A stretch of 64,000 bases of DNA from Actinomycetota bacterium (GTDB lineage Bacteria > Actinomycetota > Acidimicrobiia > Acidimicrobiales > CADCSY01). The stretch covers positions 492 to 64,491 of the forward strand of contig SIRW01000094.1 in NCBI GenBank assembly GCA_004366205.1. Direction: 5' to 3'. Within the stretch, counting starts at the first letter, position 1, and every line of letters starts with the position of its first letter. The translations under genes were made by a program, and so were the position numbers. The notes under the pieces were generated by a model. The model had not been told where the DNA came from. It searched no databases and saw only the letters and a list, made by a program, of their open reading frames with translations. Positions 18,352-63,133 of this stretch are shown one piece after another.

Positions 18352-18401
18352 GTTCTGGGTGGCCCACGTCTCACGACAGTGAGACCACACCCACCCAGAA
18401 C
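18352..18401. repeat. 50-nt nested-hairpin repeat, copy A (REP-like)
   Basis: GTTCTGGGTGG-CCCAC-GTCTCAC-GACA-GTGAGAC-CACAC-CCACCCAGAAC. 11-bp outer stem and 7-bp inner stem. 46/50 identical to copy B at 55355 and 42/50 to copy C at 55417. Lies between convergent genes. Confidence 0.9.
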
Positions 18402-39461: not shown

Positions 39462-40517
39462 TCAGAACCGGGTCGGGAGGCTCGTGCGGGGCCGGGCGAA
39501 GCGGCCCACGCCGCCCACCACCGGCTCGACCCGGCGCGTGGGCCGGGCGGCGACCGCGCCGCCGCCGGCCGACGCCAACCCGCCGATGAGCCGCGGCGCC
39601 GGGGCCTCGACGCCCGACAGGCGCCACAACCCGGCGGCGATCAGGCCGATGACCAGCACGGCGATGATGCGCTCGGTGGTGGTTCGGGCGACCGGCGCCG
39701 TCCGGGGGCCGCGGGGCGCGCTGCCCGGGGGGGCGGCCGCAACCGGGTCGTCGCCGTCACCGACCTCGCCGGCGCCGCCCGGAGCCGGTGCCGGCGCCCC
39801 CGGTGCGTCGAACGGCGGGGGCGCGTCGAACGCGAACCCGTCGTCGAGGAACGCCTGGCCGGGGTCGAAGCCCCCCAGGTCGTCGAAGCCGAGGTCGCCG
39901 TCGTCGAACCCGTCGCCGGGCTCGGACCCGAAGCTCGGCGCCGGCGTGAACGACTGGTCGGTCGGCTGCTCGAACGACGTCTGGAACGGCGCGGGCAGGC
40001 CCGGCGCGGGCGTGAGCACCACGTCGAAGGCGTCGCCCTGCTTGTGGCCCTCGCCGAGCTCCCAGGAGATCTGCATGCCGTCGTCGGAGAGCGCGCCCTC
40101 TACTCCCGCGGCGTCGCAGTCGGCCTCGGGCCGGCTCTCCCAGGTGCCGCCGTCGGCCGCGCCCCACTGCGTGGGCGTGGCGCAGGCCAGGATCAGCTCG
40201 GCCACCGGGCTCGAGCCCGGCGCGACGTTCAGGGTGAGGGTGCCGCCGCCGGCGTCGGGGGCGTGGAAGCGCACGGCCGCGACGGCGATCGGGCCGCTGG
40301 GGTCGTTGGCCACGTAGAGCCCGCCCTCGGGAACCGTGGGCGGAGCGGGGACCGGCGCCGGGAGCAGGCCGCTCACTGGCTGCTGGCGGGCCTTGTACCA
40401 CCAGCCGTGCCGGTCGAGCTGGGCCTCGGCGCCGGCGGGCACAGCCAGCGTGAGCGGCGCGCCGACCGTCACCAGGCCGGCGGCCAGGGCTCGCAGGAAT
40501 CGGCGCCGGCCGGGCAT
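39462..40517 (-). CDS. Tat-signal exported protein with acidic F/D/G-rich linker and C-terminal TM anchor
   Basis: MPGRRRFLRALAAGLVTVGAPLTLAVPAGAEA (twin-arginine motif), ...GDGFDDGDLGFDDLGGFDPGQAFLDDGFAFD..., ...RIIAVLVIGLIAAGLW. The ATG overlaps the stop of the MFS-NBD-NBD gene (TGATG). Confidence 0.7.
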   Translation of the reverse strand: MPGRRRFLRALAAGLVTVGAPLTLAVPAGAEAQLDRHGWWYKARQQPVSGLLPAPVPAPPTVPEGGLYVANDPSGPIAVAAVRFHAPDAGGGTLTLNVAPGSSPVAELILACATPTQWGAADGGTWESRPEADCDAAGVEGALSDDGMQISWELGEGHKQGDAFDVVLTPAPGLPAPFQTSFEQPTDQSFTPAPSFGSEPGDGFDDGDLGFDDLGGFDPGQAFLDDGFAFDAPPPFDAPGAPAPAPGGAGEVGDGDDPVAAAPPGSAPRGPRTAPVARTTTERIIAVLVIGLIAAGLWRLSGVEAPAPRLIGGLASAGGGAVAARPTRRVEPVVGGVGRFARPRTSLPTRF

Positions 40518-43500
40518 CAGCCGCCCCTCGCCCGCAGCGGCTCGCGCCGGCGCCGGCCCCGCCCGCCGCCGTCACCGCCGGCGGGGTGGGGCCGGCGGGC
40601 TGATCGGCTGGCCATGGCCTTGCTCTCGCCCGAGCGGTGGATGACGTCGAGGTCACCGCCGAGGTAGGCGGACACGACGCGCTCGTCGGCCAGCACCGCC
40701 TCGGGTTCGCCGCGGGTCACGACGGCGCCGAGCTCGAGCGCGATGATCTCGTCGGAGACGGACGTGATCAGCGGCATGTCGTGCTCGATCACGAGCAGCG
40801 AGCAGTTGGCCTCGCGCTGGATGCGCTTCAGCAGGGGCCCGAGGGCCTCGGTCTCGCGCTGGGCGATGCCCGAGGACGGCTCGTCGAGGAGCAGCACGTC
40901 GGGGTCGTGGGCGATCGCCATGGCCAGGTCGACGACGCGGCGCGAGCCGGTGGACAGCTCGGAGACGAACTTGTTGCGGAACGCCCCGAGGTGCATGAGC
41001 TCGATCAGGTCGTCCACCGTCCAGGCGACGTCGAGCTCGGACTGCTGCATGGCGGGCAGGCCGAGCAGCGCGGCCACGTGGTCGCGGGTCTCGATGTGGC
41101 GCTCGAGGCCGAGGGCGATGTTCTCGGCGACGGTGAGCGACGGGAAGATGCGGGCGTCCTGGAACGAGCGGCCGAGGCCGATGGCGGCCCGGCGGTCGGC
41201 GCCCCAGCGGGTGATGTCGACGCCCTTGAAGCGGATGCGGCCGGCATCGAGGGCGAGGTGGCCCGACAGCAGGTCGAAGATCGTGGTCTTGCCGGCGCCG
41301 TTCGGGCCGATGAGCCCGAGGATCTCGCCCTCGGCGAGCGTGAAGCTCACGTCGTTCACGGCCGTGATGCCGCCGAAGCGCTTGGTGAGGCCCTCCACCT
41401 CGAGGATCGGGGCGTGCCCGGTGGTGCCGGGCAGGGCCTTGCGGGCGCTGGCCGGGACCTTCCCGCGACCGTTCGCCGACTCGCCGTTCACCGAGCCCGC
41501 GCCCTCGAGGAAGACGGCCCGCAGGATGTCCCCGCGCTCGAGCAGCTCCTCGGTGGGTCCCGAGAACCGCACCTCGCCCTTCTCCATGAAGTAGGCGCGC
41601 TCGGCGATCGTGAGGGCCACGTTCACCGACTGCTCGACGAGGATGACGGTGCAGCCCTGGGCGTGGATGGCCCGCACCATGTCGAGGAGGAGCTCGACGA
41701 CGGTGGGGGCGAGCCCGAGCGAGAGCTCGTCGATGATCAGAAGGCGCGGGCGGGCGACGAACGCCATGCCCAGGGCGAGCTGCTGCTGCTCGCCACCGGA
41801 GAGGTTGCCGGCCATCTGGTCCCACCGCTCGCGCAGGCGGGGGAAGCGGTCGAGGACCTCCTCCACCCGGCGGTCGATCTCGGCGGGGTCCTCCTGGGTG
41901 TAGAGCCACGTGCCGGCCTTGAAGTGCTCGGCGACGGTGAGCGTGGGGAACACCGCCTTGCCGCCGGGCACCTGGATGATCCCCAGCTTGGCCGTCTGCA
42001 CGGCATCGGCGTGGGTGATGTCCCGGCCGTCGTAGAAGATGGCGCCGCCGATGGGGTCGACGGTGCCGGAGATGGCCTTCAGCAGCGTGGACTTGCCGGC
42101 GCCGTTGGTGCCGAGCAGGGCGATGATGTCGCCCTCGTAGACGTCGAGGTCGACGCCGAACAGCACCTGGACCTGGTCGTAGGCGACGTCGACGCCCTTG
42201 CAGACGAGCAGGGGCCGGCGGCCGTCGCCCCGCTCGAACTCCTCCCGCACGCGGATGGCGGTGGAGAGCGTGTTGCGGGCCTGCTCGACGTCACGGCGGA
42301 CGAAGCGGCTGGCCGAGGCCCCGATCAGGCCGGCGAGGGCCACGATGGCGGCCAGCACGGCGATGGCCCACCGGTAGCCCTGCGCCTCGCCCAGCTCGAA
42401 CAGCGGGATCGAGGCGAAGCCGCCGAGGCCGACGAAGAGGATGGCGTAGGCGTAGGCCTGGGAGCGCACCCGGGGCGGCGCGACGATCCCGACGAGCGAG
42501 AAGTAGGCGGGCTGGTAGGCGCCCACGCCCATCGACAGGAAGAACGCCATGGCCAGCGACAGCAGCGCCCAGGGGGCGATGGCCATGAGGATGAGGCCCG
42601 CGGCGAACTGCACGAACGACAGCCCGGTGATCGTGGCCAGGCGGGGGGTGCGGCCGTCCCGGGCGGCCCGGGAGGCGAGCGTGCCGCCGACGAGCAGCCC
42701 GGCGACGGTGCCGGCGCCGAAGACGAACTGCACGACGCCGCGCTCGAAGGCGCCGTAGTCGTAGACGTCCTCGAAGAACAGCGACAGGAACTGGTTGATC
42801 GCCAGGTAGCCGACGCCGAGGAAGAAGGCGCCCACCCACAGGCGGCGCAGCGTGCGCACCGAGTAGAGCTGCCGGCGGGCCTCGGCGAAGGGCACCTTGC
42901 CTTCCACCTCCTCGGCCTTGGCGGCGAGGTCGGCGTCGATGCTCTCCCCCCGCTTGGGTTCGCGCAGCTTGGCGACCAGCAGCGCCAGGAACACATACGT
43001 GGGGATGGCCAGCAGGATGAACGCGGCGCGCCAGCCGAGCGCGGCGCCGATGGCGCCGGCGACGATGCCGGACACGGCGGCGACGGGGTTGGCGAGCCGG
43101 TGGATCTGGAAGACCCGGGGGTGGACCTCGGGCTTGTAGTAGTCGCCCAGGAGGCTGGGGTGGACGACCTCGTTGATGATGCGGCCGATGCCGGCGAGGA
43201 GGCGGACGGCGAACAGCAGCAGCACCGTGGGAACCACGCCCGTGAGGATGCTCATCGTGCTCCAGAGCACGGCGGCGAACGCCGCCACCCGCACCCGGTT
43301 GGAGCGGTCGGCGATGTAGCCGACAGGCAGGGCGGCGAGCAGGATGAACACGCTGCTGATCACGCCGATGGCGCCGATGCCGGCGTCGGTCAGGTCGAAG
43401 GCGTCGCGGATCTCGGGGGTGAGCGCGGCGAAGGCGATGACGTCGAACTGGTCGACGAAGTTGAGTCCCAGCAGGATCCCGAGCGGCAGCACCGAGGCGC

Positions 43501-43597
43501 CACCGGTGAGGGCGGCGAACCGGCCGCCCCGGCCGGTGGACGGCGGGACGAGGTCGGTCGGGCCGGCAGGCGGCGGCTGCGGGGTGGTGGTGCTCAT
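40517..43597 (-). CDS. fusion protein: MFS transporter domain + LivF-like ABC ATPase + LivG-like ABC ATPase
   Basis: Continuous frame of 1026 codons from ATG 43597, which overlaps the permease stop (ATGA). MFS motif A PVGYIADRSNRVRV. NBD1: GTNGAGKSTL / LSGGEQQQLALG / LLIIDELSLGLAP. NBD2: GPNGAGKTTIFD / LSTGSRRVVDLA / VLLLDEPSSGIAQ. The track ORF 40517-45889 continues upstream only as out-of-frame overlap with the permease. Confidence 0.85.
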   Translation of the reverse strand: MSTTTPQPPPAGPTDLVPPSTGRGGRFAALTGGASVLPLGILLGLNFVDQFDVIAFAALTPEIRDAFDLTDAGIGAIGVISSVFILLAALPVGYIADRSNRVRVAAFAAVLWSTMSILTGVVPTVLLLFAVRLLAGIGRIINEVVHPSLLGDYYKPEVHPRVFQIHRLANPVAAVSGIVAGAIGAALGWRAAFILLAIPTYVFLALLVAKLREPKRGESIDADLAAKAEEVEGKVPFAEARRQLYSVRTLRRLWVGAFFLGVGYLAINQFLSLFFEDVYDYGAFERGVVQFVFGAGTVAGLLVGGTLASRAARDGRTPRLATITGLSFVQFAAGLILMAIAPWALLSLAMAFFLSMGVGAYQPAYFSLVGIVAPPRVRSQAYAYAILFVGLGGFASIPLFELGEAQGYRWAIAVLAAIVALAGLIGASASRFVRRDVEQARNTLSTAIRVREEFERGDGRRPLLVCKGVDVAYDQVQVLFGVDLDVYEGDIIALLGTNGAGKSTLLKAISGTVDPIGGAIFYDGRDITHADAVQTAKLGIIQVPGGKAVFPTLTVAEHFKAGTWLYTQEDPAEIDRRVEEVLDRFPRLRERWDQMAGNLSGGEQQQLALGMAFVARPRLLIIDELSLGLAPTVVELLLDMVRAIHAQGCTVILVEQSVNVALTIAERAYFMEKGEVRFSGPTEELLERGDILRAVFLEGAGSVNGESANGRGKVPASARKALPGTTGHAPILEVEGLTKRFGGITAVNDVSFTLAEGEILGLIGPNGAGKTTIFDLLSGHLALDAGRIRFKGVDITRWGADRRAAIGLGRSFQDARIFPSLTVAENIALGLERHIETRDHVAALLGLPAMQQSELDVAWTVDDLIELMHLGAFRNKFVSELSTGSRRVVDLAMAIAHDPDVLLLDEPSSGIAQRETEALGPLLKRIQREANCSLLVIEHDMPLITSVSDEIIALELGAVVTRGEPEAVLADERVVSAYLGGDLDVIHRSGESKAMASRSARRPHPAGGDGGGRGRRRREPLRARGG

Positions 43598-46011
43598 GCG
43601 CCCTCCTCGCGGGCGCCGGCGGTGCGGCGCAGGTGGTCGTGGTCGGCCGCGTCCTCGAGGGTCAGCTCGGCCTCGCAGACGGGGCACCAGATCGTGCGGT
43701 CGGCGAGCACGTCGAAGCTCGCGACGGTGTCGACGCTGTGCTCGGCTTCGGTGAGCACGTCCTGCTGGTCCTCGCCGGTCTCGACCCGCCGGTCCGCCAC
43801 GAGGGACGGGACGTGGATGCCGTTGCGGTTGGCGACCCAGCGCAGGGCGGCGTCGCGCACGCGCCAGATGCCCTCGGCCAGCCCACCGGGCAGGAACATG
43901 AGGATCACGATCAGGCCCGGCCCGGTGACGAGGAGCGTGAGCTCGTTGATGTTCAGCCGGTTGGCGGCGATGGTGACGCCCTGGCTGAACACCCCGCCGA
44001 GCACGGCGCCGGCGAGCGAGCTGATGCCGCCCACCACGGTGTAGGCGAACACGGCGAGGCTGTTGCCGGTGCCGTAGGTGCCGGCGTCGACCGAGCCCAG
44101 GTGGTAGGCGTTGAGCACGCCGGCGGCGGCGGCGATGAACCCGGCCACGGCGAAGGCGGCCAGCTTGGTGCGGGCGAGGTTGATGCTGTAGCTGGCCGCC
44201 GCCCGCGAGTTGTCGCGCACGGCGATGAGCACCCGGCCGCTGCGGTGGCGCCGGAACGACACGGCAGCCGCGAGGGTGAGCACCAGGAAGGCCAGGCAGA
44301 ACCAGTACCAGTTGCGGGGCTCGGCCAGGTCGATGCGCTCGAAGAGGAAGGGGCGGGTCACCCGGGCGCCGTCCTCGGGCAGCATGTGCCGGCCGAAGAA
44401 GTAGCCGCGGTTGAGCAGCCAGAACTGGGTGAAGGCGGCGAAGGCGAGGGTCGTGACCGCCAGGAACAGGCCCTGGATGCGCAGCGCCGGGATGCCCACG
44501 ATGATCGCCACGAAGGCCCCGGCGAGGCCACCGGCGACGAGCACCACGAAGAAGTCCTGGTTGTGGTTGGCGACCAGGTGCCCGGCGACGAGCGCGCCGA
44601 CGCCCACGAAGGCGAACTGCCCCAGGCTGATCTGGCCGGCCCAGCCGGTCAGCACCACGAGCGACACGCCCACCATCGCCCAGATGAGGGCGCTGGTGGC
44701 GGCGCTGACGTTCTGGACGCCGACGTAGAACGGCGCGAGCAGGAAGAGGGCGGCGACAGCGGCGACCACGGTGGTGCGCCCGGCGCGCACCTCGCGGACG
44801 TCGCGCAGCTCGGGCGGGACGGCACGCAGCTCCTTCACGGCCTGCCACGTGGCCACCCCGGTGTCCATCGCCCGGGACATCGAGCCGCGCTGGAACAGCA
44901 GGGCCAGCAGGATGACGAGCAGCATGATGGCCGCGCCCTCGGAGCTGCGGCCCGTGGCGAACACCGAGGACTGGTCGATCACCCCGATGATCATCCCGGC
45001 GCCGATGGCCACGGGCAGCCGCTCCATCCGGGCGATGACGGCTGCGGCCAGCGCGAACAGCAGGACCTCCGCGCCGGCCAGGCCCCCGAGGGGCAGGCCC
45101 ACGATGGGGCCCCGGAGGAACACCGTGATGGCGGAGAACGTGCCGGCGAGCATCCAGGCCACGGTGCCGACCCGCCGGACGGGGATGCCGAGCAGCGAGG
45201 CCCGGTCGGCGTTCTCGGCCGATGCCCGCACGGCGATGCCGAGGCGCGTGTACTTGAAGAACAGGCCGAGCAGGACGGCGCAGAGGATGACGCCGCCCAG
45301 GGCCACGAACTGGTCGCCGGTGATGGGCTGGCGGCCGAAGAAGAACCCGAAGCGGGTGAAGGGGGTGCGGATGACGTCGGGCAGCCGGTCGGCGCCGAGC
45401 CACCCGGGTGTGAGCAGCGTGAAGAACGCCAGCAGCTGGGCGATGCCGATCGTCACGACGGTGAGGATCAGGCGGGGGGCGTTCGCGAACCGCCGGACGA
45501 TGACCACGTCGATGAGCCCGCCGGCGACGGCGCCGCCGGCGATGGCGATGGGCAGGGCGAGGAAGTAGTGCACCCCGTGCACGACCATGAGGGTCATGGC
45601 GAACACCGCGGGCAGGGCGCCCATGCTGCCGGCGGCGAAGTTGATGATGCGGTTCGCCCGGTAGATGAGGATGATGCCGACCGCCATCAGCCCGTAGAGG
45701 GCGCCGAGGCACGCGCCCCAGAACATGAGCCCGTCGGGCGTGCCCCAGATCTGCTTCACGAGCCAGTAGGCGCCGAGGGCGGCCCACGCCGTGGTGACCA
45801 CCGCCCGGGTGGCGGCGCGGCTGCGGAGCTGGTCCCACGCCAGCGCCGTGAGCAGCCCGGCGACGAGCACGGGTGGGATCGACCACCACGGCGCGCTCCA
45901 GACGGTGAGGACGAGGGCGAGGAACGAGAGGCCGAGGGCCACGAAGGCGCTGAGCGCCTTGCGCTGGGGGGTGGCGGTGGCTTCGCGGGTGAGCTCCTGG
46001 AGGGCGGTCAC
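43594..46011 (-). CDS. fused LivH-LivM branched-chain-amino-acid-type (HAAT) ABC permease
   Basis: 805 aa. First half LivH-like (IILIYRANRIINFAAGSMGAL), second half LivM-like (VLTGWAGQISLGQFAFVGVGA), plus a ~70-aa acidic C-terminal tail with CPVCE. GTG start at 46011. Confidence 0.85.
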   Translation of the reverse strand: MTALQELTREATATPQRKALSAFVALGLSFLALVLTVWSAPWWSIPPVLVAGLLTALAWDQLRSRAATRAVVTTAWAALGAYWLVKQIWGTPDGLMFWGACLGALYGLMAVGIILIYRANRIINFAAGSMGALPAVFAMTLMVVHGVHYFLALPIAIAGGAVAGGLIDVVIVRRFANAPRLILTVVTIGIAQLLAFFTLLTPGWLGADRLPDVIRTPFTRFGFFFGRQPITGDQFVALGGVILCAVLLGLFFKYTRLGIAVRASAENADRASLLGIPVRRVGTVAWMLAGTFSAITVFLRGPIVGLPLGGLAGAEVLLFALAAAVIARMERLPVAIGAGMIIGVIDQSSVFATGRSSEGAAIMLLVILLALLFQRGSMSRAMDTGVATWQAVKELRAVPPELRDVREVRAGRTTVVAAVAALFLLAPFYVGVQNVSAATSALIWAMVGVSLVVLTGWAGQISLGQFAFVGVGALVAGHLVANHNQDFFVVLVAGGLAGAFVAIIVGIPALRIQGLFLAVTTLAFAAFTQFWLLNRGYFFGRHMLPEDGARVTRPFLFERIDLAEPRNWYWFCLAFLVLTLAAAVSFRRHRSGRVLIAVRDNSRAAASYSINLARTKLAAFAVAGFIAAAAGVLNAYHLGSVDAGTYGTGNSLAVFAYTVVGGISSLAGAVLGGVFSQGVTIAANRLNINELTLLVTGPGLIVILMFLPGGLAEGIWRVRDAALRWVANRNGIHVPSLVADRRVETGEDQQDVLTEAEHSVDTVASFDVLADRTIWCPVCEAELTLEDAADHDHLRRTAGAREEGA

Positions 46012-46017
46012 GACGTC

Positions 46018-47745
46018 CTACCGGGGCTTGTTGGGGAGCTGGGGCTCACCCTGGGGCCACTGCCCGAGGTCGTAGCGGCGCCCCTCGTTGAGGGCGACGT
46101 AGGAGCCCGGGCGGCCGTCGAGGCGGGACGGCGTGGTGTGGCTCCAGTAGACCTCGCGCATGTCGCTGATCCAGGTGTAGTCCCCCTCGCCGAACCGCCG
46201 GGTCTCGTGCTGGCCGCCACCGAGCGTGCCCAGGCGGCGGGCGCCCTGCTCGAAGGTGCCGGGGTTCAGGTTCGGACCGGCCATCTGGATGATGCCGCCG
46301 AGCATCTCGTAGTAGTGCCAGGCGAACAGGGCGGTGTTGTAGGGCTGGCCCGAGCGCCCGGTGGCCCGCCAGACGCGGGCGGCGTCGTTGTCCGAGAAGG
46401 GCTGGGGAGCGCCGAGCATGCTCAGGCCCCACGCCTGCTGCCACTGCGTGCCGGCCGAGCCGTAGATGCGGCCGAAGGCGTCGTGGTCCATGAGCCCGGA
46501 CCCGGCGAGGATGTACTCGGGCCGGTACTGGCGCTCCTCGGACGTGATGACCATGAAGTGGGGTGCGATGCCGTCGCAGATGCAAGAGATCGTCGTCACG
46601 TTGTTCTCCTGCATCCGGTCGATGCCGGCGTTGCGCTGCTCGTTGGCCCGGTCGATGTCCTGGGCGTACTGGTACTCGGCGACGACCCCGCTCCCGCAGT
46701 TGCGGACCATCTGCTTCAGCTCGTTCAGGACCTGCACGTTCGCCGGGTCGTCGGGCGTGATGATCCCCAGGCGCCGCTCCTGGAGGGTGAGCCGCGGGTC
46801 ACCGGCCTGCACGGCGTTGCCACCGGCGAGGCGCTTGCACCAGTACTCGGCGAGGTGCCGGGCGATCACCGAGCCGCTGATGCGGGTGTCCCACACGAAG
46901 GGGCGGCGGTTCTGCCGGAAGCTGTCGGGGAAGTGGTGGCCGCCGAGCGCGATCACCCGGTGGGCGGCCACCTCGTCGAAGAACGCGGAACCGAGCGGGG
47001 TGTTCCACAGCACGGCGAAGGGGCGGGTCTCGGCGATCAGCCGCCGGGCCTCGTCCCGCAGGCACTGGGGCTCGGGCGGCAGCAGCGGGCAGCTGCCGGT
47101 GAACTTCACCACCTCGATCTCACGCCCGTAGAACTCGTAGCGGCTGTTGAGGAACTCCAAGGCCGCCCGCTCGAACTCGTCGACCTCCTCGGCGTTCGCC
47201 GCCAGGTCCTGGCTCGCGAGGATGGCGTCGACCGCGGCGTTGGGGGCCGGCGCGTAGCGGGTGATGCGGATCTTGTCGGCGGTGACGCCCTGGTAGGTCG
47301 CGCCGCCGTTGTTGGCGCCCTCGGGGAACTTGCCGACACACGGCGGGGCGAAGGGGGTCACGTCGTGCTGGCGCCCGTCGCGGCAGTGGCTGGTGTCGCC
47401 CCCGCCGGCGGCGGCGCCGCCGCCGTCGCCGCGAGGTCCACCGCCCGCCTGGCCGCCGCTGCCCCCGGTCCCCTGCTGACGCCCCGGGGCGGCCCGCCGC
47501 TCACCGGTCTCGGGGTTCACGAACTCGCCAGTGGCCTCGTCGAGGACGAAGCCCTCGGCCTCGAGCTCGTCGTCGAAGCCGTTGGGGTCACCGGCGGCGA
47601 GCTCGTCGTCGAAGAAGCCGCCGTCGCCGCCGAAGGTCAGATCCGTCGCCTCGGGCGCCCGGGACGGGGCGATGGCGATGATCAGGAGCTGGACGACCAC
47701 GAGCGCGGCCAACGGCGCGTACCGCCTGGCCAACGACCGATTCAT
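46018..47745 (-). CDS. putative substrate-binding protein of the HAAT-type transporter, membrane-anchored, long, Cys-rich
   Basis: MNRSLARRYAPLAALVVVQLLIIAIAP (uncleaved anchor-like) from ATG 47745, preceded by GAGGGGG. An acidic/Gly-rich ~100-aa linker precedes a ~450-aa domain with 9 Cys. The family assignment rests mainly on operon position. Confidence 0.55.
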   Translation of the reverse strand: MNRSLARRYAPLAALVVVQLLIIAIAPSRAPEATDLTFGGDGGFFDDELAAGDPNGFDDELEAEGFVLDEATGEFVNPETGERRAAPGRQQGTGGSGGQAGGGPRGDGGGAAAGGGDTSHCRDGRQHDVTPFAPPCVGKFPEGANNGGATYQGVTADKIRITRYAPAPNAAVDAILASQDLAANAEEVDEFERAALEFLNSRYEFYGREIEVVKFTGSCPLLPPEPQCLRDEARRLIAETRPFAVLWNTPLGSAFFDEVAAHRVIALGGHHFPDSFRQNRRPFVWDTRISGSVIARHLAEYWCKRLAGGNAVQAGDPRLTLQERRLGIITPDDPANVQVLNELKQMVRNCGSGVVAEYQYAQDIDRANEQRNAGIDRMQENNVTTISCICDGIAPHFMVITSEERQYRPEYILAGSGLMDHDAFGRIYGSAGTQWQQAWGLSMLGAPQPFSDNDAARVWRATGRSGQPYNTALFAWHYYEMLGGIIQMAGPNLNPGTFEQGARRLGTLGGGQHETRRFGEGDYTWISDMREVYWSHTTPSRLDGRPGSYVALNEGRRYDLGQWPQGEPQLPNKPR

Positions 47746-47867
47746 GTGCACGACCCCCTCGGACGATGGTCCTGAGCTGTGTTGCGGTGGCACGGCGGGT
47801 GACGGCGGTCACGAGCCGTTCACGTCATCTATTCGCCGGACCCCGCCTGACTTCCTGCGTCCCAGGG

Positions 47868-48926
47868 TCAGGAACGGGCGCGGCCCGTGGGGCGGTCGTG
47901 CTCGTCGCGGATGTCGCCGACGAGCTCCTCCAGCAGGTCCTCGAGCGTCACGAGGCCGGCGGCCGTGCCGTCCTCGCCGGTCACCACGGCGACGTGCAGG
48001 CGGGCCCGCCGCATCGCCACGATCACCTCCCCCAGCGACCGTTCGGCGCCCACCACGAGCATCCGCCGCACCAGCCGGGGCGGGATGGCCCGGACCCGGG
48101 CGCGGTCGTCGAGGGCCAGCAGGTCCTTGGCGTGGACGTAGCCGAGCAGGTCGGCCCGGTCCCGACCCCACACGGGGATGCGGGAGTGGCCGCTCTCGAC
48201 CACGACGCGCTCGAAGCGGTCGGGCGCGGCGGTCGCCGGCAGCGACACCACCCGGTCGAGCGGCACCATCAGCGTGCCCACCGAGCGGTCGCGGAACCGC
48301 AGGGCGCCAGAAAGAAGGCGGTGCTCGACCTCTTCGAGCAGCCCTTCGCGCCGGGACGCCGCCAGCATCCGCGCGATCTCGTCGGCGGTGTGGGCGTCGA
48401 CCAGCTCCTGGCGGGGCTCGACCCCGCCGAGGCGGAGCACGCCGTTGGCCGTGGCGTTGAGCGCGCGGACCAGCGGGCGGAACACGGCCACGAACGCGGC
48501 CATGGGGAGGGCCAGCCACAGCGCCGAGCGCTCCGGCTCGGTGATGGCGATGTTCTTGGGGACCATCTCGCCGATCACCATGTGCAGGAACACCACGATC
48601 GACAGGGCCAGCACGAACGCGACCGTGTGGGTGGCGCCCGCGGGCAGGCCGAGCACGCCGAGCGGGCCCTCCAGCAGGCGGGCGACGGCGGGCTCGGCGA
48701 CGAACCCCAGGCCGAGCGACATCATGGTGATGCCGAGCTGCGACGCGGACAGCATGAGCGTCAGCTCGCGCATCGACCGCGCCGCCAACCGGGCGCGGAA
48801 GCTGCCCTCGCTCGCAGCCTGCTCGATGCGGGTGCGACGGGCGGCGACGAGCGCGAACTCGGCGGCCACGAAGAAGGCGTTCGCCAGCAGGAGCACGACG
48901 GCGGCGCCGAGGGCCAGCGCCGTCAC
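47868..48926 (-). CDS. CNNM/HlyC-CorC family transporter (DUF21 + CBS pair)
   Basis: VTALALGAAVVLLLANAFFVAAEFALVAARRTRIEQ... from GTG 48926 (GTGA overlap with the upstream paralog), with a CBS pair. The 638-aa track ORF is an out-of-frame extension. Confidence 0.85.
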   Translation of the reverse strand: MTALALGAAVVLLLANAFFVAAEFALVAARRTRIEQAASEGSFRARLAARSMRELTLMLSASQLGITMMSLGLGFVAEPAVARLLEGPLGVLGLPAGATHTVAFVLALSIVVFLHMVIGEMVPKNIAITEPERSALWLALPMAAFVAVFRPLVRALNATANGVLRLGGVEPRQELVDAHTADEIARMLAASRREGLLEEVEHRLLSGALRFRDRSVGTLMVPLDRVVSLPATAAPDRFERVVVESGHSRIPVWGRDRADLLGYVHAKDLLALDDRARVRAIPPRLVRRMLVVGAERSLGEVIVAMRRARLHVAVVTGEDGTAAGLVTLEDLLEELVGDIRDEHDRPTGRARS

Positions 48927-50218
48927 CGCTCGTCGCCGCCCCGACGTCGGTGCCCGTCCGGCGGGCCGGCGGCTGTCGCCGGCGGCGCCGTCACGCGGAC
49001 CGTCGCGATCCGCAGCCGGTCCCGGGCGAGCACCTCGAGGGTCCAGCCCTGCCAGGCCGCCTGCTCCCCTTCCTCGGGGATCCGCCCGAGGAGCGCGAGG
49101 ACGAACCCGGCGAGGGTCTCGTAGTCGCCGTCGGGGATCTCCAGCCCCGTGAGGTCGAGCACCTCGTCGAGGTGGAGCGTCCCGTCGAGCACCCAGGTGC
49201 CCGCCGGGAGGGCGGCCGTGAGCCCCGCCTCGGGCACCGGGTCGTGCTCGTCGTGGATCTCGCCGACGATCTCTTCGAGCACGTCCTCCAGGGTGATGAT
49301 GCCGGCCGTCCCCCCGTACTCGTCGACCACGACGGCGAGCTGCGTGCCCCGGCTGCGCATGTCGACGAGCAGCGACTCGAGGTCGCGCGTCTCGGGGATG
49401 GCCAGGGCGTCCTTCATGATCCGCGCCACCGGCGTCGACGACCGCTCGGCGGCGGGCACCCGGAACACGTCCTTGGCGAGCACCACGCCCACGATGTCGT
49501 CGAGCTCGTCCCGGTAGACCGGGAAGCGCGAGTACCCCGTCTCCACGGCGAGCGCCGCCAGCTCGGCGACGCTCTGCTCCGGACGGATCGCCGTGACCGA
49601 GACCCGCGGGACCATCGCCTCGTCGGCGGTCTTGTGGGCGAAGCGGAAGGTCCGGGTCAGCAGCGCCAGGGACTCGGGGTCGAGCGTGCCCTCCCGACCG
49701 GAGGACTGCACGAGCAGCTCGAGCTCCTGGAGCGTCCGCACCGACGTCAGCTCCTCGCGGGGCTCGATGCCCAGGCGCCGGCACGTGGCGTTGGCGGCGG
49801 CGTTGAAGAGGGCGATGAGCGGCCCCGCCACGAGCGTGTAGGCCCGCAGCGGCGCGGCCACGAGCAGCGACGCCCCCAGCGGGCGGGCGATCGCCCAGTT
49901 CTTGGGGACGAGCTCGCCGAGCACCATCTGCACGACCGTCGCCAGCCCCAGCGCCAGGGCGATCGACACGCCCAGGCTCGCCTGCTCGGGCACGAACGGC
50001 AGCGCCCCGATCAGCGGGTCGAGCAGCACGGCCACGGCCGGCTCGGCCACGAACCCCAGCACGAGGGAGCTGGCGGTGATGCCGAGCTGGGCGCCTGAGA
50101 GGTTGAACGAGAGGCGCTCCAGGCCCCGCAGCGCGAGGCGCGCTCGACGGTTGCCCTGGGCGGCGAGCACCTCGATGCGGTCGCGGTCGACGGCCACGAG
50201 GGCGAACTCGGCCGCCAC
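48923..50218 (-). CDS. CNNM/HlyC-CorC family transporter (DUF21 + CBS pair + CorC_HlyC)
   Basis: 431 aa from the first canonical start (GTG 50218). The DUF21 first TM helix (TIDTALGLGLVGALILANAFF) continues in frame upstream to about 50278, where the only candidate start is ATC (see findings). Confidence 0.85.
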   Translation of the reverse strand: MAAEFALVAVDRDRIEVLAAQGNRRARLALRGLERLSFNLSGAQLGITASSLVLGFVAEPAVAVLLDPLIGALPFVPEQASLGVSIALALGLATVVQMVLGELVPKNWAIARPLGASLLVAAPLRAYTLVAGPLIALFNAAANATCRRLGIEPREELTSVRTLQELELLVQSSGREGTLDPESLALLTRTFRFAHKTADEAMVPRVSVTAIRPEQSVAELAALAVETGYSRFPVYRDELDDIVGVVLAKDVFRVPAAERSSTPVARIMKDALAIPETRDLESLLVDMRSRGTQLAVVVDEYGGTAGIITLEDVLEEIVGEIHDEHDPVPEAGLTAALPAGTWVLDGTLHLDEVLDLTGLEIPDGDYETLAGFVLALLGRIPEEGEQAAWQGWTLEVLARDRLRIATVRVTAPPATAAGPPDGHRRRGGDER

Positions 50219-55303: not shown

Positions 55304-55354
55304 CACCCCAACCCCCACCCCCACCCCCAACCCCAAACCCCCAACCCCCAACCC
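55304..55354. repeat. 51-nt tract made only of C and A (CCCCA/CCCCAA-like units); its complement has eight G-runs
   Basis: Read directly: caccccaacccccacccccacccccaaccccaaacccccaacccccaaccc. Starts 6 nt after the TauE stop and abuts repeat copy B. Confidence 0.9.
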
Positions 55355-55404
55355 GTTCTGGGTGGCCCACCTCTCACGAGCGTGAGACCAGACCCACCCA
55401 GAAC
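55355..55404. repeat. 50-nt nested-hairpin repeat, copy B
   Basis: GTTCTGGGTGG-CCCAC-CTCTCAC-GAGC-GTGAGAC-CAGAC-CCACCCAGAAC. Confidence 0.9.
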
Positions 55405-55416
55405 CCGCCCCCACCC

Positions 55417-55466
55417 GTTCTGGGTGGCTCACGTCTCATCAGGGTGAGACCCGAGCCACCCAGAAC
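55417..55466. repeat. 50-nt nested-hairpin repeat, copy C
   Basis: GTTCTGGGTGG-CTCAC-GTCTCAT-CAGG-GTGAGAC-CCGAG-CCACCCAGAAC. Here GGCTC/GAGCC pair, which extends the outer stem. Confidence 0.9.
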
Positions 55467-55502: not shown

Positions 55503-57172
55503 ATGGCGAAGGGCCGGGACGTCCTGCTCGAGGTGCTCCGCACGGAGGGCGTGCGCCACGTGTTCGGCAACCCCGGCACCACTGAGCTGCCGCTCATCGA
55601 CGCCCTGGCCGGGGTCGACGACATCCGCTACGTGCTCGCCCTGCAGAAAGCGACGGCGGTGGCCAGGAGGCGACGGCGGTGGCCATGGCCGACGGCTACG
55701 CCCAGGCCACGGGCCGGCCCGCCGTGCTCAACCTGCACACCTCGGCGGGCCTCGGCAACGCCATCGGCAACCTCACCAACGCCCGGGCCAACGGCACACC
55801 TTTGGTCGTCACCGCGGGCCAGCAGGACCGCCGCCACCTCCACACCGACCCGCTGCTCGGCGGGGACCTGGTGGGTCTCGCCCGCCCGGTGTCGAAGTGG
55901 GCCCACGAGGTCCACCACCTCGAGGAGCTGGCCACCGTGACGCGCCGGGCGTTCCACGACGCCGCCTCGCCGCCCACGGGGCCCGTGTTCCTCTCGCTGC
56001 CGATGGACCTGCTGGACGAGGAGGGCGACGCGCCCCTGCCTGCGCCGTCGCGCATCGAGCGCGGCGCCGTCGCCGGCGGGCTCGACGAGCTCGTTCGGCT
56101 GCTGACCGGGTGCGCGCCCGGGGAGCTGGCCATCGTGGCCGGCGACGAGGTGAGCGCGTCCGGCGGGGTGGACGCCCTGGCCGCCCTGGCCGAGGCGCTC
56201 GGCTGCCCCGTGCACGGCTCGCCGCTGCACTCCACCACCGTGTTCCCACCCGAGCACCCGCTGTGGGCGGGACCGCTCGCCCCCGCCGCCGCCACGATCC
56301 GCGCCACGCTCGAGCGCTACCGCCGGGTGCTGCTCGTCGGCGGGCTGGCCTTCATGGTGTACCCCTACACCGAGGGGCCGGCTGTCCCCGAGGGCGTCGA
56401 GCTCCTGCACCTGTCCCCCGACCCCCACCAGCTCGGGCGCACCTGGCCCGTTCGGCTGGGCCTCGCCGGGGACCCCAGGGCGACGCTCGAGGCGCTCCTC
56501 CCCCTCGTCGTGTCCGCCGCCGACGCCGGAGCGGCCGCCGAGGCGCTCGCCGCCGCCCGCGCCCGCCGCGCGGACGAGCTCGCCCGGTTCGAGGAGACCG
56601 CGCTCGACCGCTACGACCGGGCGCCCATGGACCCGATGGCCGCCGCCCACGCCCTGGTGCGGGCCCTCCCGCCCGACACGGCGGTCGTCGACGAGGCCAT
56701 CACCACGGGCGTCTACGTGCGCGGGTTCCACCGACCCTCGGGGACCGGCCGGTACTTCTTCTGCCGGGGCGGAGGCCTGGGCTGGGGGATGCCCGCGGCG
56801 CTCGGTGTGTCGCTCGGGCACGACGCCGCGCCCGTGCTCTGCGTCGTGGGTGACGGCTCGGCCATGTACTCGCCGCAAGCGCTGTGGACCGCGGCGGCCG
56901 AGGACCTGCCGGTGGTGTTCGCCGTCGTCAACAACCGGCAGTACCTGATCCTGAAGAACGCCCTGCGGGGCCGGGCCGACGAGGCCGCCCGCCGCGAGCG
57001 GTTCATCGGCATGGACCTGGACGCGCCGCCGGTCGACTTCGTGGGCCTCGCCCGCTCCATGGGCGTCGAGGCCACCCTGGTCGAGAAGGCGGCCGATGTG
57101 GCCGACGCCGTGCGGGACGCGCTCGACGCCGGCGGACCGCACCTGCTCGAGCTGCCGATTGCCGCCCGCTGA
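55503..57172 (+). pseudogene. thiamine-diphosphate enzyme, benzoylformate decarboxylase/acetolactate synthase-like, frameshifted by a 20-nt direct repeat
   Basis: N-terminus MAKGRDVLLEVLRTEGVRHVFGNPGTTELPLIDALAGVDDIRYVLALQ is in the frame of ORF 55476-55940. The rest (ATAVAMADGYAQATGRPAV ... GDGSAMYSPQALWTAAAEDLPVVFAVVNNRQY) is in the frame of ORF 55679-57172. Removing 20 nt gives one 549-codon frame. Confidence 0.8.
55647..55686 (+). repeat. imperfect 20-nt tandem direct repeat (16-nt identical core GCGACGGCGGTGGCCA)
   Basis: aaaGCGACGGCGGTGGCCAg | gagGCGACGGCGGTGGCCAt, 17/20 identical. Lies exactly at the frame break of the ThDP enzyme. Confidence 0.9.
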
Positions 57173-61342: not shown

Positions 61343-61843
61343 TCAGCCCAGCTCGTCGGCGACGACCTGCTGGAGGGCCGCGTCCTTGCCGGCGACCATG
61401 TCCTCGAGCTCCCGCTGGTGCTGCTCGACCCGGACCCGCAGCTCGGCGTCACCGGCGGCGAGGATGCGCACGGCGAGGAACCCGGCGTTGCGGGCACCGT
61501 CGACCGCCACGGTCGCCACGGGGACCCCGGCGGGCATCTGCACGATCGACAGCAGCGAGTCGAGGCCGTCCAGCCGGGCGAGCGCGACGGGGACCCCGAT
61601 GACCGGCAGCGGCGTGACCGACGCCAGCATCCCGGGCAGGTGGGCGGCGCCGCCAGCCCCGGCGATGAGCACCCGCAGGCCTCGCCCGGCCGCCTCCTTG
61701 CCGTAGCGCAGCATCCCCTCGGGGGTTCGGTGCGCCGACACCACGTGGACCTCGGTGGGCACGGAGAACTGGCGGAGCACCTCGACGGCCCCGCGCATGA
61801 CCGGCCAGTCCGAGTCGCTGCCCATCACCACGCCGACGGTCAT
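61343..61843 (-). CDS. purE: 5-(carboxyamino)imidazole ribonucleotide mutase
   Basis: [23 protein letters not shown]...[11 protein letters not shown], 166 aa. ATGA overlap with the purK stop. Confidence 0.95.
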
Positions 61844-63133
61844 CCCGGCACCTCCCCCGTCAGGGCGGCCGCCGCGGCCCGGGCCCGGCGCCCGGCGTCG
61901 TCGAGGTCGGGGCCCAGGGCGGTCACGTGGCCGACCTTGCGCTCGCGCCGGGGACGCTTGCCGTAGACGTGGACGTGCGCTCCCGGCACGGCGAGGGCGC
62001 AGTCGACGAAGCGTGCCGGGTCGTGGTCGTCGTCGACCGCCACGACGTTCACCATCACCGCGGCGGGCGCACGCGGGTCGGTGGCGCCGAGCGGCCAGTC
62101 GAGGACCGCCCGCAGGTGGTTCTCGAACTGCGAGGTGGTGCACATCTCGATCGAGTGGTGACCGCTGTTGTGCGTGCGGCAGGCCAGCTCGTTGATCACG
62201 ATCCGGTCGTCGACGACGAAGAGCTCGACGGCCATGACGCCGGCGAGCTCGACCAGCTCGGCGATGCGCCCGGCGATGGCGGCCGCCTCGGCGGCCAGCT
62301 CGGGGGCCACCGGCGCGGGCACCAGCACCTCGCGGCACATGCCGTCGCGCTGGACGCTCTCCACCACCGGATAGGTCACGCGCTCCCCTGACGGGCGGCG
62401 GGCGACCATCACCGCCAGCTCCCGCTCGAGCGGGAGCCGGGGCTCGGCGAGCCAGCGCCCCGAGGCGCCCGCCAGGACCGCCTGGGCGGCGTCGGGCCCG
62501 TCGGCGAAGACCACGCCCCGCCCGTCGTAGCCACCGCTGGCGGCCTTGAGGACGAGCGGCCAGCCGTGCTCGGCGGCGAAGCCGTCCACGTCCTCGGGTG
62601 CCGCCACCTCGGCGAAGGGCGGCACGGGCAGGCCGGCGTCCCGCAGGGCTCGCCGCTGGGCGAGCTTGTCGGCGGCCAGCTCGAGGGCCCGGACCCCGGG
62701 GCGCACGACGACGCCCGCGTCGATGAGGGCCTGGGGCACCGAGGGGTCGGCGGGGTCGTGGTCGAAGGTCACCACGTCGACGTCGCCGGCCGCCTCGAGG
62801 ATCCCGTCGAGCCCGCCGTCCCAGGGGATCGCCCGGGCGATCTCCGAGCTCGAGTCGTCGGTCGGGCGGGCGAGCACGGTCGGCGGGGTCGTGGTCGAAG
62901 GTCACCACGTCGACGTCGCCGGCCGCCTCGAGGATCCCCTCGAGCCCGCCGTCCCAGGGGATCGCCCGGGCGATCTCCGAGCTCGAGTCGTCGGTCGGGC
63001 GGGCGAGCACCCGCAGCTCCACGCCCAGCGCCAGCGCCGGCGCCACGGTCATGCGGGCCAGCTGCCCGCCGCCGCACACGAGCACCCGCGGCGGCCGGTC
63101 CCGGGGCGCGGGCGTGGCGGCGGACGGGGTCAC
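61840..63133 (-). pseudogene. purK: 5-(carboxyamino)imidazole ribonucleotide synthase (PurK) interrupted by a 133-bp tandem duplication
   Basis: The N-terminus ([33 protein letters not shown]...FDHDPAD) starts at GTG 63133. The rest of PurK (ATP-grasp, 345 aa) is in another frame from 62877. The peptide [22 protein letters not shown](E/D)[20 protein letters not shown] is encoded twice. Deleting one copy gives a 386-aa PurK. Confidence 0.85.
62745..63010. repeat. 2 x 133-bp tandem direct duplication (62745-62877 and 62878-63010), one mismatch found by eye
   Basis: Aligned by eye base by base. The only difference I found is 62806 G versus 62939 C. 133 is not divisible by 3. Confidence 0.93.

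Follow-up and report, generated by a model that had tools for sequence, protein, structure and literature searches.

A 133-bp tandem duplication frameshifts purK in an uncultured Acidimicrobiales-like bacterium: a probable young and revertible null allele

The purine biosynthesis gene purK lies on the reverse strand, close to the end of a 64,000-nt stretch of DNA (positions 492 to 64,491 of contig SIRW01000094.1, assembly GCA_004366205.1; hereafter the window), and is interrupted there by a 133-bp direct tandem duplication, which places the start of the gene out of frame with its ATP-grasp body. The core claim of a first-pass annotation of this DNA, an intragenic tandem duplication frameshifting purK, is correct by frame analysis. 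On balance, this is probably a real and young loss-of-function allele of an uncultured Acidimicrobiales-like bacterium, tolerated as PurK is dispensable at high CO2. The duplication is an instance of an ordinary, self-reversible mutation class (or possibly an assembly error), and involves no new mechanism. The gene as written consists of two parts in different frames, with one copy of the repeated unit in each:

62878 to 63133, reverse strand: N-terminal part of purK, 85 codons from GTG 63133 and one additional base; the invariant GGGQLARM loop lies in this part.
61840 to 62877, reverse strand: body of purK, 345 codons with ATP-grasp and PurK_C, +1 out of frame with the N-terminal part.
62878 to 63010, reverse strand: upstream (gene-5') copy of the 133-bp unit, in the purK start frame, encoding residues 42-85 with Glu65 (GAG; C at 62939 on the plus strand).
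62745 to 62877, reverse strand: downstream copy of the 133-bp unit, in the purK body frame, encoding the same 44 residues with Asp (GAC; G at 62806).

The two units lie head to tail and are identical at 132 of 133 positions. The direct tandem copies described in the first-pass annotation are recovered by TRF (period 133, 2.0 copies, 99% matches, score 525), by a repeat finder and by direct comparison, the last also returning the single mismatch that it had reported, G at 62806 versus C at 62939. One peptide is indeed encoded twice, with Glu in the upstream and Asp in the downstream copy, the difference being a third-codon-position G<->C change. Both residues occur at this variable column of the homologues (D in 9, A in 7, E in 5 and G in 4), which do not decide between D and E as the ancestral allele. 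The mismatch stands at position 62 of 133, leaving arms of 61 and 71 nt, and the longest exact repeat between the copies is accordingly 71 bp. At a base-match probability of 0.307 (window GC content 73.9%), at least 132 matches in 133 would occur by chance with a probability of ~2e-66. Scanning of the whole window for tandem duplications with a period of 16-200 and an identity of at least 90% yields two only, the 133-bp duplication in purK and a 20-bp duplication at 55644, and twenty triplet-shuffled controls yield zero under identical criteria. The 133-bp repeat is not extendable by even one base on either side, the left flank ending in ...CACCGAGG and the unit itself in ...GCGAGCAC, and the right flank beginning with CCGCAG... 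and the unit itself with GGTCGG.... Because flanks and unit ends differ at once, the junction 62877|62878 is without microhomology (0 nt of shared sequence in the boundary comparison). Inspection of the breakpoints for hairpins and quasi-palindromes gives just weak, GC-driven matches, and Rfam and tRNA scans of the window give no relevant RNA gene.

As the first-pass annotation reckoned, 133 equals 3 x 44 + 1, so that the body at 61840-62877 is not in the frame of the 85 codons that begin at GTG 63133. Its proposal that deleting either copy repairs the gene is reproduced in silico, giving an open reading frame (ORF) of 1161 nt that encodes 386 aa plus a stop. The restored PurK scores 384.4 bits against NCBIfam NF004680 (cut-off 327) and 323.6 bits against TIGR01161 (cut-off 318.4), in both cases over residues 12-381, and this full-length family match is reached only after one 133-bp copy is removed. 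Its alignment with 28 homologues (367-400 aa) runs over the entire length. It carries the conserved residue at 64 of the 64 invariant columns of the 29-sequence alignment, and aligns with the solved PurK structures 3aw8, 3ax6 and 3q2o from residue 17-19 onward. As written, the locus holds no single-frame PurK: the Pfam RS_preATP-grasp-like match (residues 18-80 of the N-terminal part) and the ATP-grasp/PurK_C part are in different frames. Insertion or length variation at the duplication site is found in none of the 28 homologues. The longer PurKs P0077 (457 aa) and P0020 (412 aa) were considered as possible signs of a recurrent hotspot, which was rejected, since they have terminal extensions only. 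Judged from its sequence, purK as written is a disrupted family member, i.e. a pseudogene or null allele.

Two further features describe what the locus would produce:

61343 to 63133, reverse strand: composite 596-aa ORF, comprising PurK residues 1-85, ~345 out-of-frame codons, and PurE in frame.
61343 to 61843, reverse strand: purE, encoding a class I N5-carboxyaminoimidazole ribonucleotide (N5-CAIR) mutase with the SAHRTP motif, intact, with GGAGG 7 nt upstream of its ATG.

Reading from GTG 63133 gives 85 native residues, followed by ~345 out-of-frame residues rich in Arg, Pro and Gly, and continues into purE, the fused ORF of 596 aa arising from a shifted frame that is free of stops and is also that of purE. 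Given this ORF, purE could be translated as a long fusion besides from its own start. A special meaning of the 345-codon stop-free run was considered and rejected (P ~0.32): stops in this shifted frame number 3.3 per 1000 codons in this genome, and in 13 of 34 long genes it is stop-free as well. The second potential product is the 345-aa ORF starting at GTG 62877, which was chosen by the source's gene caller (P0001 is identical) and has no Shine-Dalgarno sequence before its start. It is without residues 1-41, and the first beta-strand, Gly-rich loop and helix are missing; their counterpart in the alignment with 3aw8 is residues 4-26 of that structure. The eight invariant columns before residue 42 (G21, G23, Q24, L25, A26, M28, A33 and L36) are missing from it, as is the preATP-grasp Pfam match, which is present in every full-length homologue among those listed.

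That the gene nevertheless still works, with the 345-aa product active either alone or when complemented by the 85-residue N-terminal fragment, appears very improbable. Both fragments are open, share a 44-residue overlap and jointly hold every PurK residue, and the 345-aa ORF is the one annotated by the gene caller; against this, the latter begins in the middle of the Rossmann-like N-domain, without the 8 invariant positions that include those of the GGGQLARM loop, and at a GTG that lacks a Shine-Dalgarno sequence. The N-terminal fragment, for its part, would be fused to ~345 out-of-frame residues and PurE rather than released, and no split PurK is present among the top 120 homologues. The purK allele as written is thus presumably null.

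PurK can be dispensed with when CO2 is high or PurE is overexpressed (PMC3261824). The proposed basis of tolerance in this bacterium is that N5-CAIR would form non-enzymatically at high CO2/bicarbonate, and that the intact class I PurE, having its own ribosome-binding site, would work without PurK. PurE scores 208.7 bits against TIGR01162 (cut-off 149.6) over residues 3-157, and the ATGA overlap between purK and purE noted in the first-pass annotation is present at 61840-61843. The situation resembles the loss of purK in CO2-rich niches, where class I PurE is kept, PurK is absent or inactive, and N5-CAIR is formed non-enzymatically (PMC3261824). It differs in that purK is missing there from whole lineages (methanogens and others), whereas here a near-intact gene carries one lesion. 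Tolerance, not regulation, is the plausible biology of the purK lesion.

The favoured course of events is that the 133-bp direct tandem duplication arose within purK of this high-GC actinobacterium, likely by replication template switching or unequal sister-strand exchange, and that the 3 x 44 + 1 bases thereby inserted after codon 85 left the start frame no longer matching the ATP-grasp body. In-register slippage or recombination would then delete exactly 133 bp, and the gene, left with Asp or with Glu, would function again. Being a direct repeat, the insert should make the lesion intrinsically revertible, which is a general property of tandem duplications and calls for no dedicated switch. 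In Mycobacterium smegmatis, direct repeats undergo precise, RecA-independent deletion at ~1000-fold above background (PMC3519483). Frameshifting microhomology-mediated tandem duplications (MTDs) in S. pombe, studied by Dan et al. (10.1101/2020.03.03.972455), are a close likeness, reverting precisely at ~1e-4 and being mostly subclonal owing to this reversion. MTDs are bounded by a microhomology pair, in contrast to the purK unit (0 nt) and the 20-bp unit (only CA), and they are 20-fold rarer in E. coli (10.1101/2020.03.03.972455). A further likeness is offered by the pseudogenes of GC-rich Burkholderia (Danneels et al. 2018, PMC6054270), in which about half of the insertions duplicate flanking sequence and create direct repeats; these insertions are mostly of at most 15 nt, so that 20 and 133 nt would fall in the tail of the size distribution.

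The second duplication is a new observation of the present follow-up analysis, located 7 kb from purK and likewise frameshifting:

55644 to 55683, forward strand: 20 bp x 2 tandem duplication, CAGAAAGCGACGGCGGTGGC followed by CAGGAGGCGACGGCGGTGGC, with mismatches at 55647 and 55649.

Read with its flanks as CTG, CAGAAAGCGACGGCGGTGGC, CAGGAGGCGACGGCGGTGGC and CATGG, it has 2 nt of microhomology (CA) at the unit boundary, and it splits a gene (ATG 55503 to 57172) for a benzoylformate decarboxylase (BFDC)-like thiamine diphosphate (ThDP) enzyme, the N-terminal domain match of which begins at Pfam profile position 53. Deletion of either copy gives a 549-aa protein, which aligns over its full length with benzoylformate decarboxylases (structure 4q9d at 1e-88). 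It is labelled BFDC-like because its score of 399 bits against NF005485 is under the 493-bit cut-off. In the upstream copy, the Glu codon of the conserved ALQE motif is changed from GAG to AAA (Lys), AAA being a rare codon here (third-position GC ~95%); this Glu is the residue that activates the cofactor in ThDP enzymes. Collapse would most likely run between the two perfect 16-nt repeats and keep Lys where Glu is conserved, and the 20-bp lesion is therefore not cleanly reversible. It is most simply explained by a mutation of the class seen in purK, occurring in an accessory gene under relaxed selection.

The remainder of the window appears to be well preserved. ORF tiling gives 59 ORFs at 94% coding density, with operon-style 4-bp overlaps, and two broken genes among these are within the usual pseudogene range of free-living bacteria. 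A Pfam run on the 58 complete ORFs, leaving out a 56-aa fragment at the window edge, shows matches that appeared complete for all but two, as judged on the best-matching stretches; those examined include AlaRS, AspRS, HisRS, ThrRS, RelA, RuvABC, PdxST, EF-G and others. By ORF tiling and Pfam together, no broken genes other than purK and the ThDP-enzyme gene were seen among these 58. The gene content is that of a core actinobacterial chromosome (alaS, aspS, hisS, relA, yajC, tgt, queA, ruvCAB, pdxST, thrS and an EF-G-like gene). The PurK and the AlaRS of the window are each recorded in databases from one contig only, of 66,550 bp, and exact look-ups of the 345-aa ORF and of PurE returned no match. 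The best non-self PurK match has 56% identity in a protein search of 5.8 billion sequences and 54% among the contigs of GTDB genomes, and JGI metagenome contigs give at most 54% for full-length matches and 61% for partial, C-terminal ones; no close relative of PurK (>56% identity) is present in any collection searched. AlaRS has its best match elsewhere, at 67%, in Acidimicrobiales, the named neighbours being metagenome-assembled genomes of that order. The window is thus part of a metagenomic contig of an uncultured Acidimicrobiales-like lineage.

Several observations weigh against a real and young allele. The sequence is known from a single contig, the nearest PurK elsewhere being 56% identical. 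Collapse of a 133-bp tandem repeat should be much quicker than the accumulation of point mutations, and a substitution following the duplication would not be expected. The mismatch has the look of an allelic polymorphism, ill-suited to a very recent clonal event. Given the expected speed of collapse, the mismatch probably arose with the duplication event or by recombination with another allele; otherwise, strains are mixed. Of the 59 ORFs, 2 are broken, both by imperfect tandem duplications and with no other type of breakage seen, a pattern that could be of technical origin. Insertions of >15 nt are rare among natural pseudogene indels (PMC6054270), and long-read metagenome assemblers are reported to give false duplications and concatenated sub-population variants (10.1101/2025.04.22.649783).

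A corresponding alternative, possible but rather unlikely, is that the organism has one 133-bp copy, and that two overlapping pieces, or two strain haplotypes that differ at the G/C site, were joined in series by a long-read or overlap-based assembler, a scaffolder, a gap-closer or a polisher, the 20-bp duplication being a second product of the pipeline. Besides the record from one contig, it draws on the nature of the mismatch, since a G<->C change in third position that swaps Asp and Glu at a variable column is typical of a strain single-nucleotide polymorphism (SNP) and is such a site as an unmerged overlap would hold; it also stands close to the centre of the unit (62 of 133). For this reason the first-pass annotation's use of the mismatch as weak evidence against an assembler artefact does not stand: the difference looks like standing allelic variation, and concatenation of haplotypes gives just such pairs. 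The two imperfect tandem duplications are moreover the only gene-breaking lesions found in 64 kb, both lie in the last 8.4 kb, and both exceed the typical size of natural insertions. The false duplications reported from long-read metagenome assemblies resemble purK in the direct repeat, the strain-SNP-like difference between copies and the broken ORF; they differ in that the reported examples are long direct repeats flagged by clipped reads (10.1101/2025.04.22.649783). No other sign of assembly trouble was seen in the window.

Other features are hard to reconcile with an artefact. No de Bruijn assembler can output a junction k-mer absent from the reads, and a k-mer assembler with k of at least 73 would need junction-containing reads to write the purK duplication, as the mismatch leaves no exact repeat longer than 71 bp. 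Neither duplication has a boundary repeat from which a false graph loop could form (0 nt at the 133-bp and 2 nt at the 20-bp unit), and the geometry of serial SNP bubbles, which calls for a unit length of 2k-1 or 2k+1 and an exactly central SNP, at position 67, does not fit the position of 62 that is found; these two tests exclude the simplest de Bruijn artefacts only, and not overlap-based, scaffolding or polishing errors. The 20-bp and 133-bp units fit no common k, and the GAG to AAA mismatch at a conserved Glu in the 20-bp duplication is unlike a functional second allele. The window has no Ns. Among insertions in bacterial pseudogenes, duplication of flanking sequence is moreover the usual form (PMC6054270). 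An error from noisy reads or a noisy consensus is unlikely, because of the 94% coding density, the 4-bp overlaps and the complete-looking Pfam matches elsewhere.

A different interpretation of a real duplication, raised in the first-pass annotation, is an on/off switch, i.e. adaptive phase variation in which duplication and collapse toggle purK, for example to save ATP when CO2 is plentiful, with a mixed population of one-copy and two-copy cells. This is improbable, and the earlier suggestion is unsupported. It is consistent with the conditional dispensability of PurK (PMC3261824) and with the finding in silico that collapse in any register restores a functional ORF, but the site offers neither an earlier repeat nor microhomology by which the duplication would form often. 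A phase-variable locus would be expected to have a built-in repeat tract conserved among relatives, whereas the single-copy gene contains no simple repeat, and inserts or length variation at the site are absent from the 28 homologues. The copies have diverged, lowering the rate of collapse, which is unexpected for a rapidly cycling switch. An unrelated gene 7 kb away is broken alike, with a likeliest collapse that retains Lys at a conserved Glu, pointing to a general mutational or technical process and not to regulation of purK.

Precedents for duplication-mediated on/off control do exist, involving reversible inactivation by intragenic duplication of the capsule genes cap3A, cap8E and tts in Streptococcus pneumoniae (Waite et al. 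2001, 2003, as cited in PMC4022640) and of phcA in Ralstonia solanacearum (Poussier et al. 2003, as cited in 10.1101/2023.04.27.538605). As far as these are described in the citing papers, they share with purK an intragenic direct duplication of tens to hundreds of bp, a frameshift, and restoration of the gene by precise loss of a copy. They differ, on the same descriptions, in that switching was seen in culture between fresh and identical copies, whereas the purK copies differ at one base and are known from the contig alone. The cap3A-type and phcA genes are, in addition, surface or virulence determinants, whereas purK is a housekeeping biosynthetic gene and not a surface gene of the contingency type. 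A further possibility, in which imperfect tandem duplications in this uncultured lineage serve as semi-stable, reversible silencers of conditionally dispensable metabolic genes (purK when CO2 is high, and the BFDC-like gene), so that two such lesions in 64 kb would stem from genome-wide, population-level bet-hedging and not from decay or artefact, is improbable as well.

If the purK duplication is real, as is favoured here, it would add one more revertible null allele formed by intragenic tandem duplication, in a conditionally dispensable gene, and would give a modest hint of a niche with high CO2/bicarbonate or available purines. The 345-aa 'PurK' of the source annotation is almost certainly non-functional, going by its sequence, the N-terminal part having been missed, and a metabolic reconstruction would wrongly score purK as present. 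That two imperfect duplications are the only gene-breaking lesions found serves as a quality-control flag for the interpretation of both genes.

Several other features of the window were observed in passing. A 50-nt palindromic element resembling repetitive extragenic palindromic (REP) sequences occurs three times in intergenic positions (18352-18401, 55355-55404 and 55417-55466), with an outer stem GTTCTGGGTGG/CCACCCAGAAC and an inner stem around TCTCA/TGAGA. It folds at -29 to -38 kcal/mol (z -6 to -7.7) and has no Rfam match, and the pair at 55355-55466 is preceded by ~7 copies of CCCCAAC (55306-55354). An unusual fused 991-aa ORF (40517-43492, reverse strand) has an MFS_1 domain at its N-terminus, and after it a UrtE-like and then a UrtD-like ATPase domain of the Liv/Urt-type ABC family. 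Ahead of it lies an 805-aa ORF (43594-46011, reverse strand) with two BPD_transp_2 permease units (LivH-like and LivM-like), preceded in turn by a 577-aa ORF (46018-47751) which has no family match where a binding protein would be expected. Two adjoining paralogous genes for CNNM/CBS (CorC-type) transporters (47868-48926 and 48923-50218, reverse strand) overlap by 4 bp and share 71-73% DNA identity over stretches of 109-132 nt.

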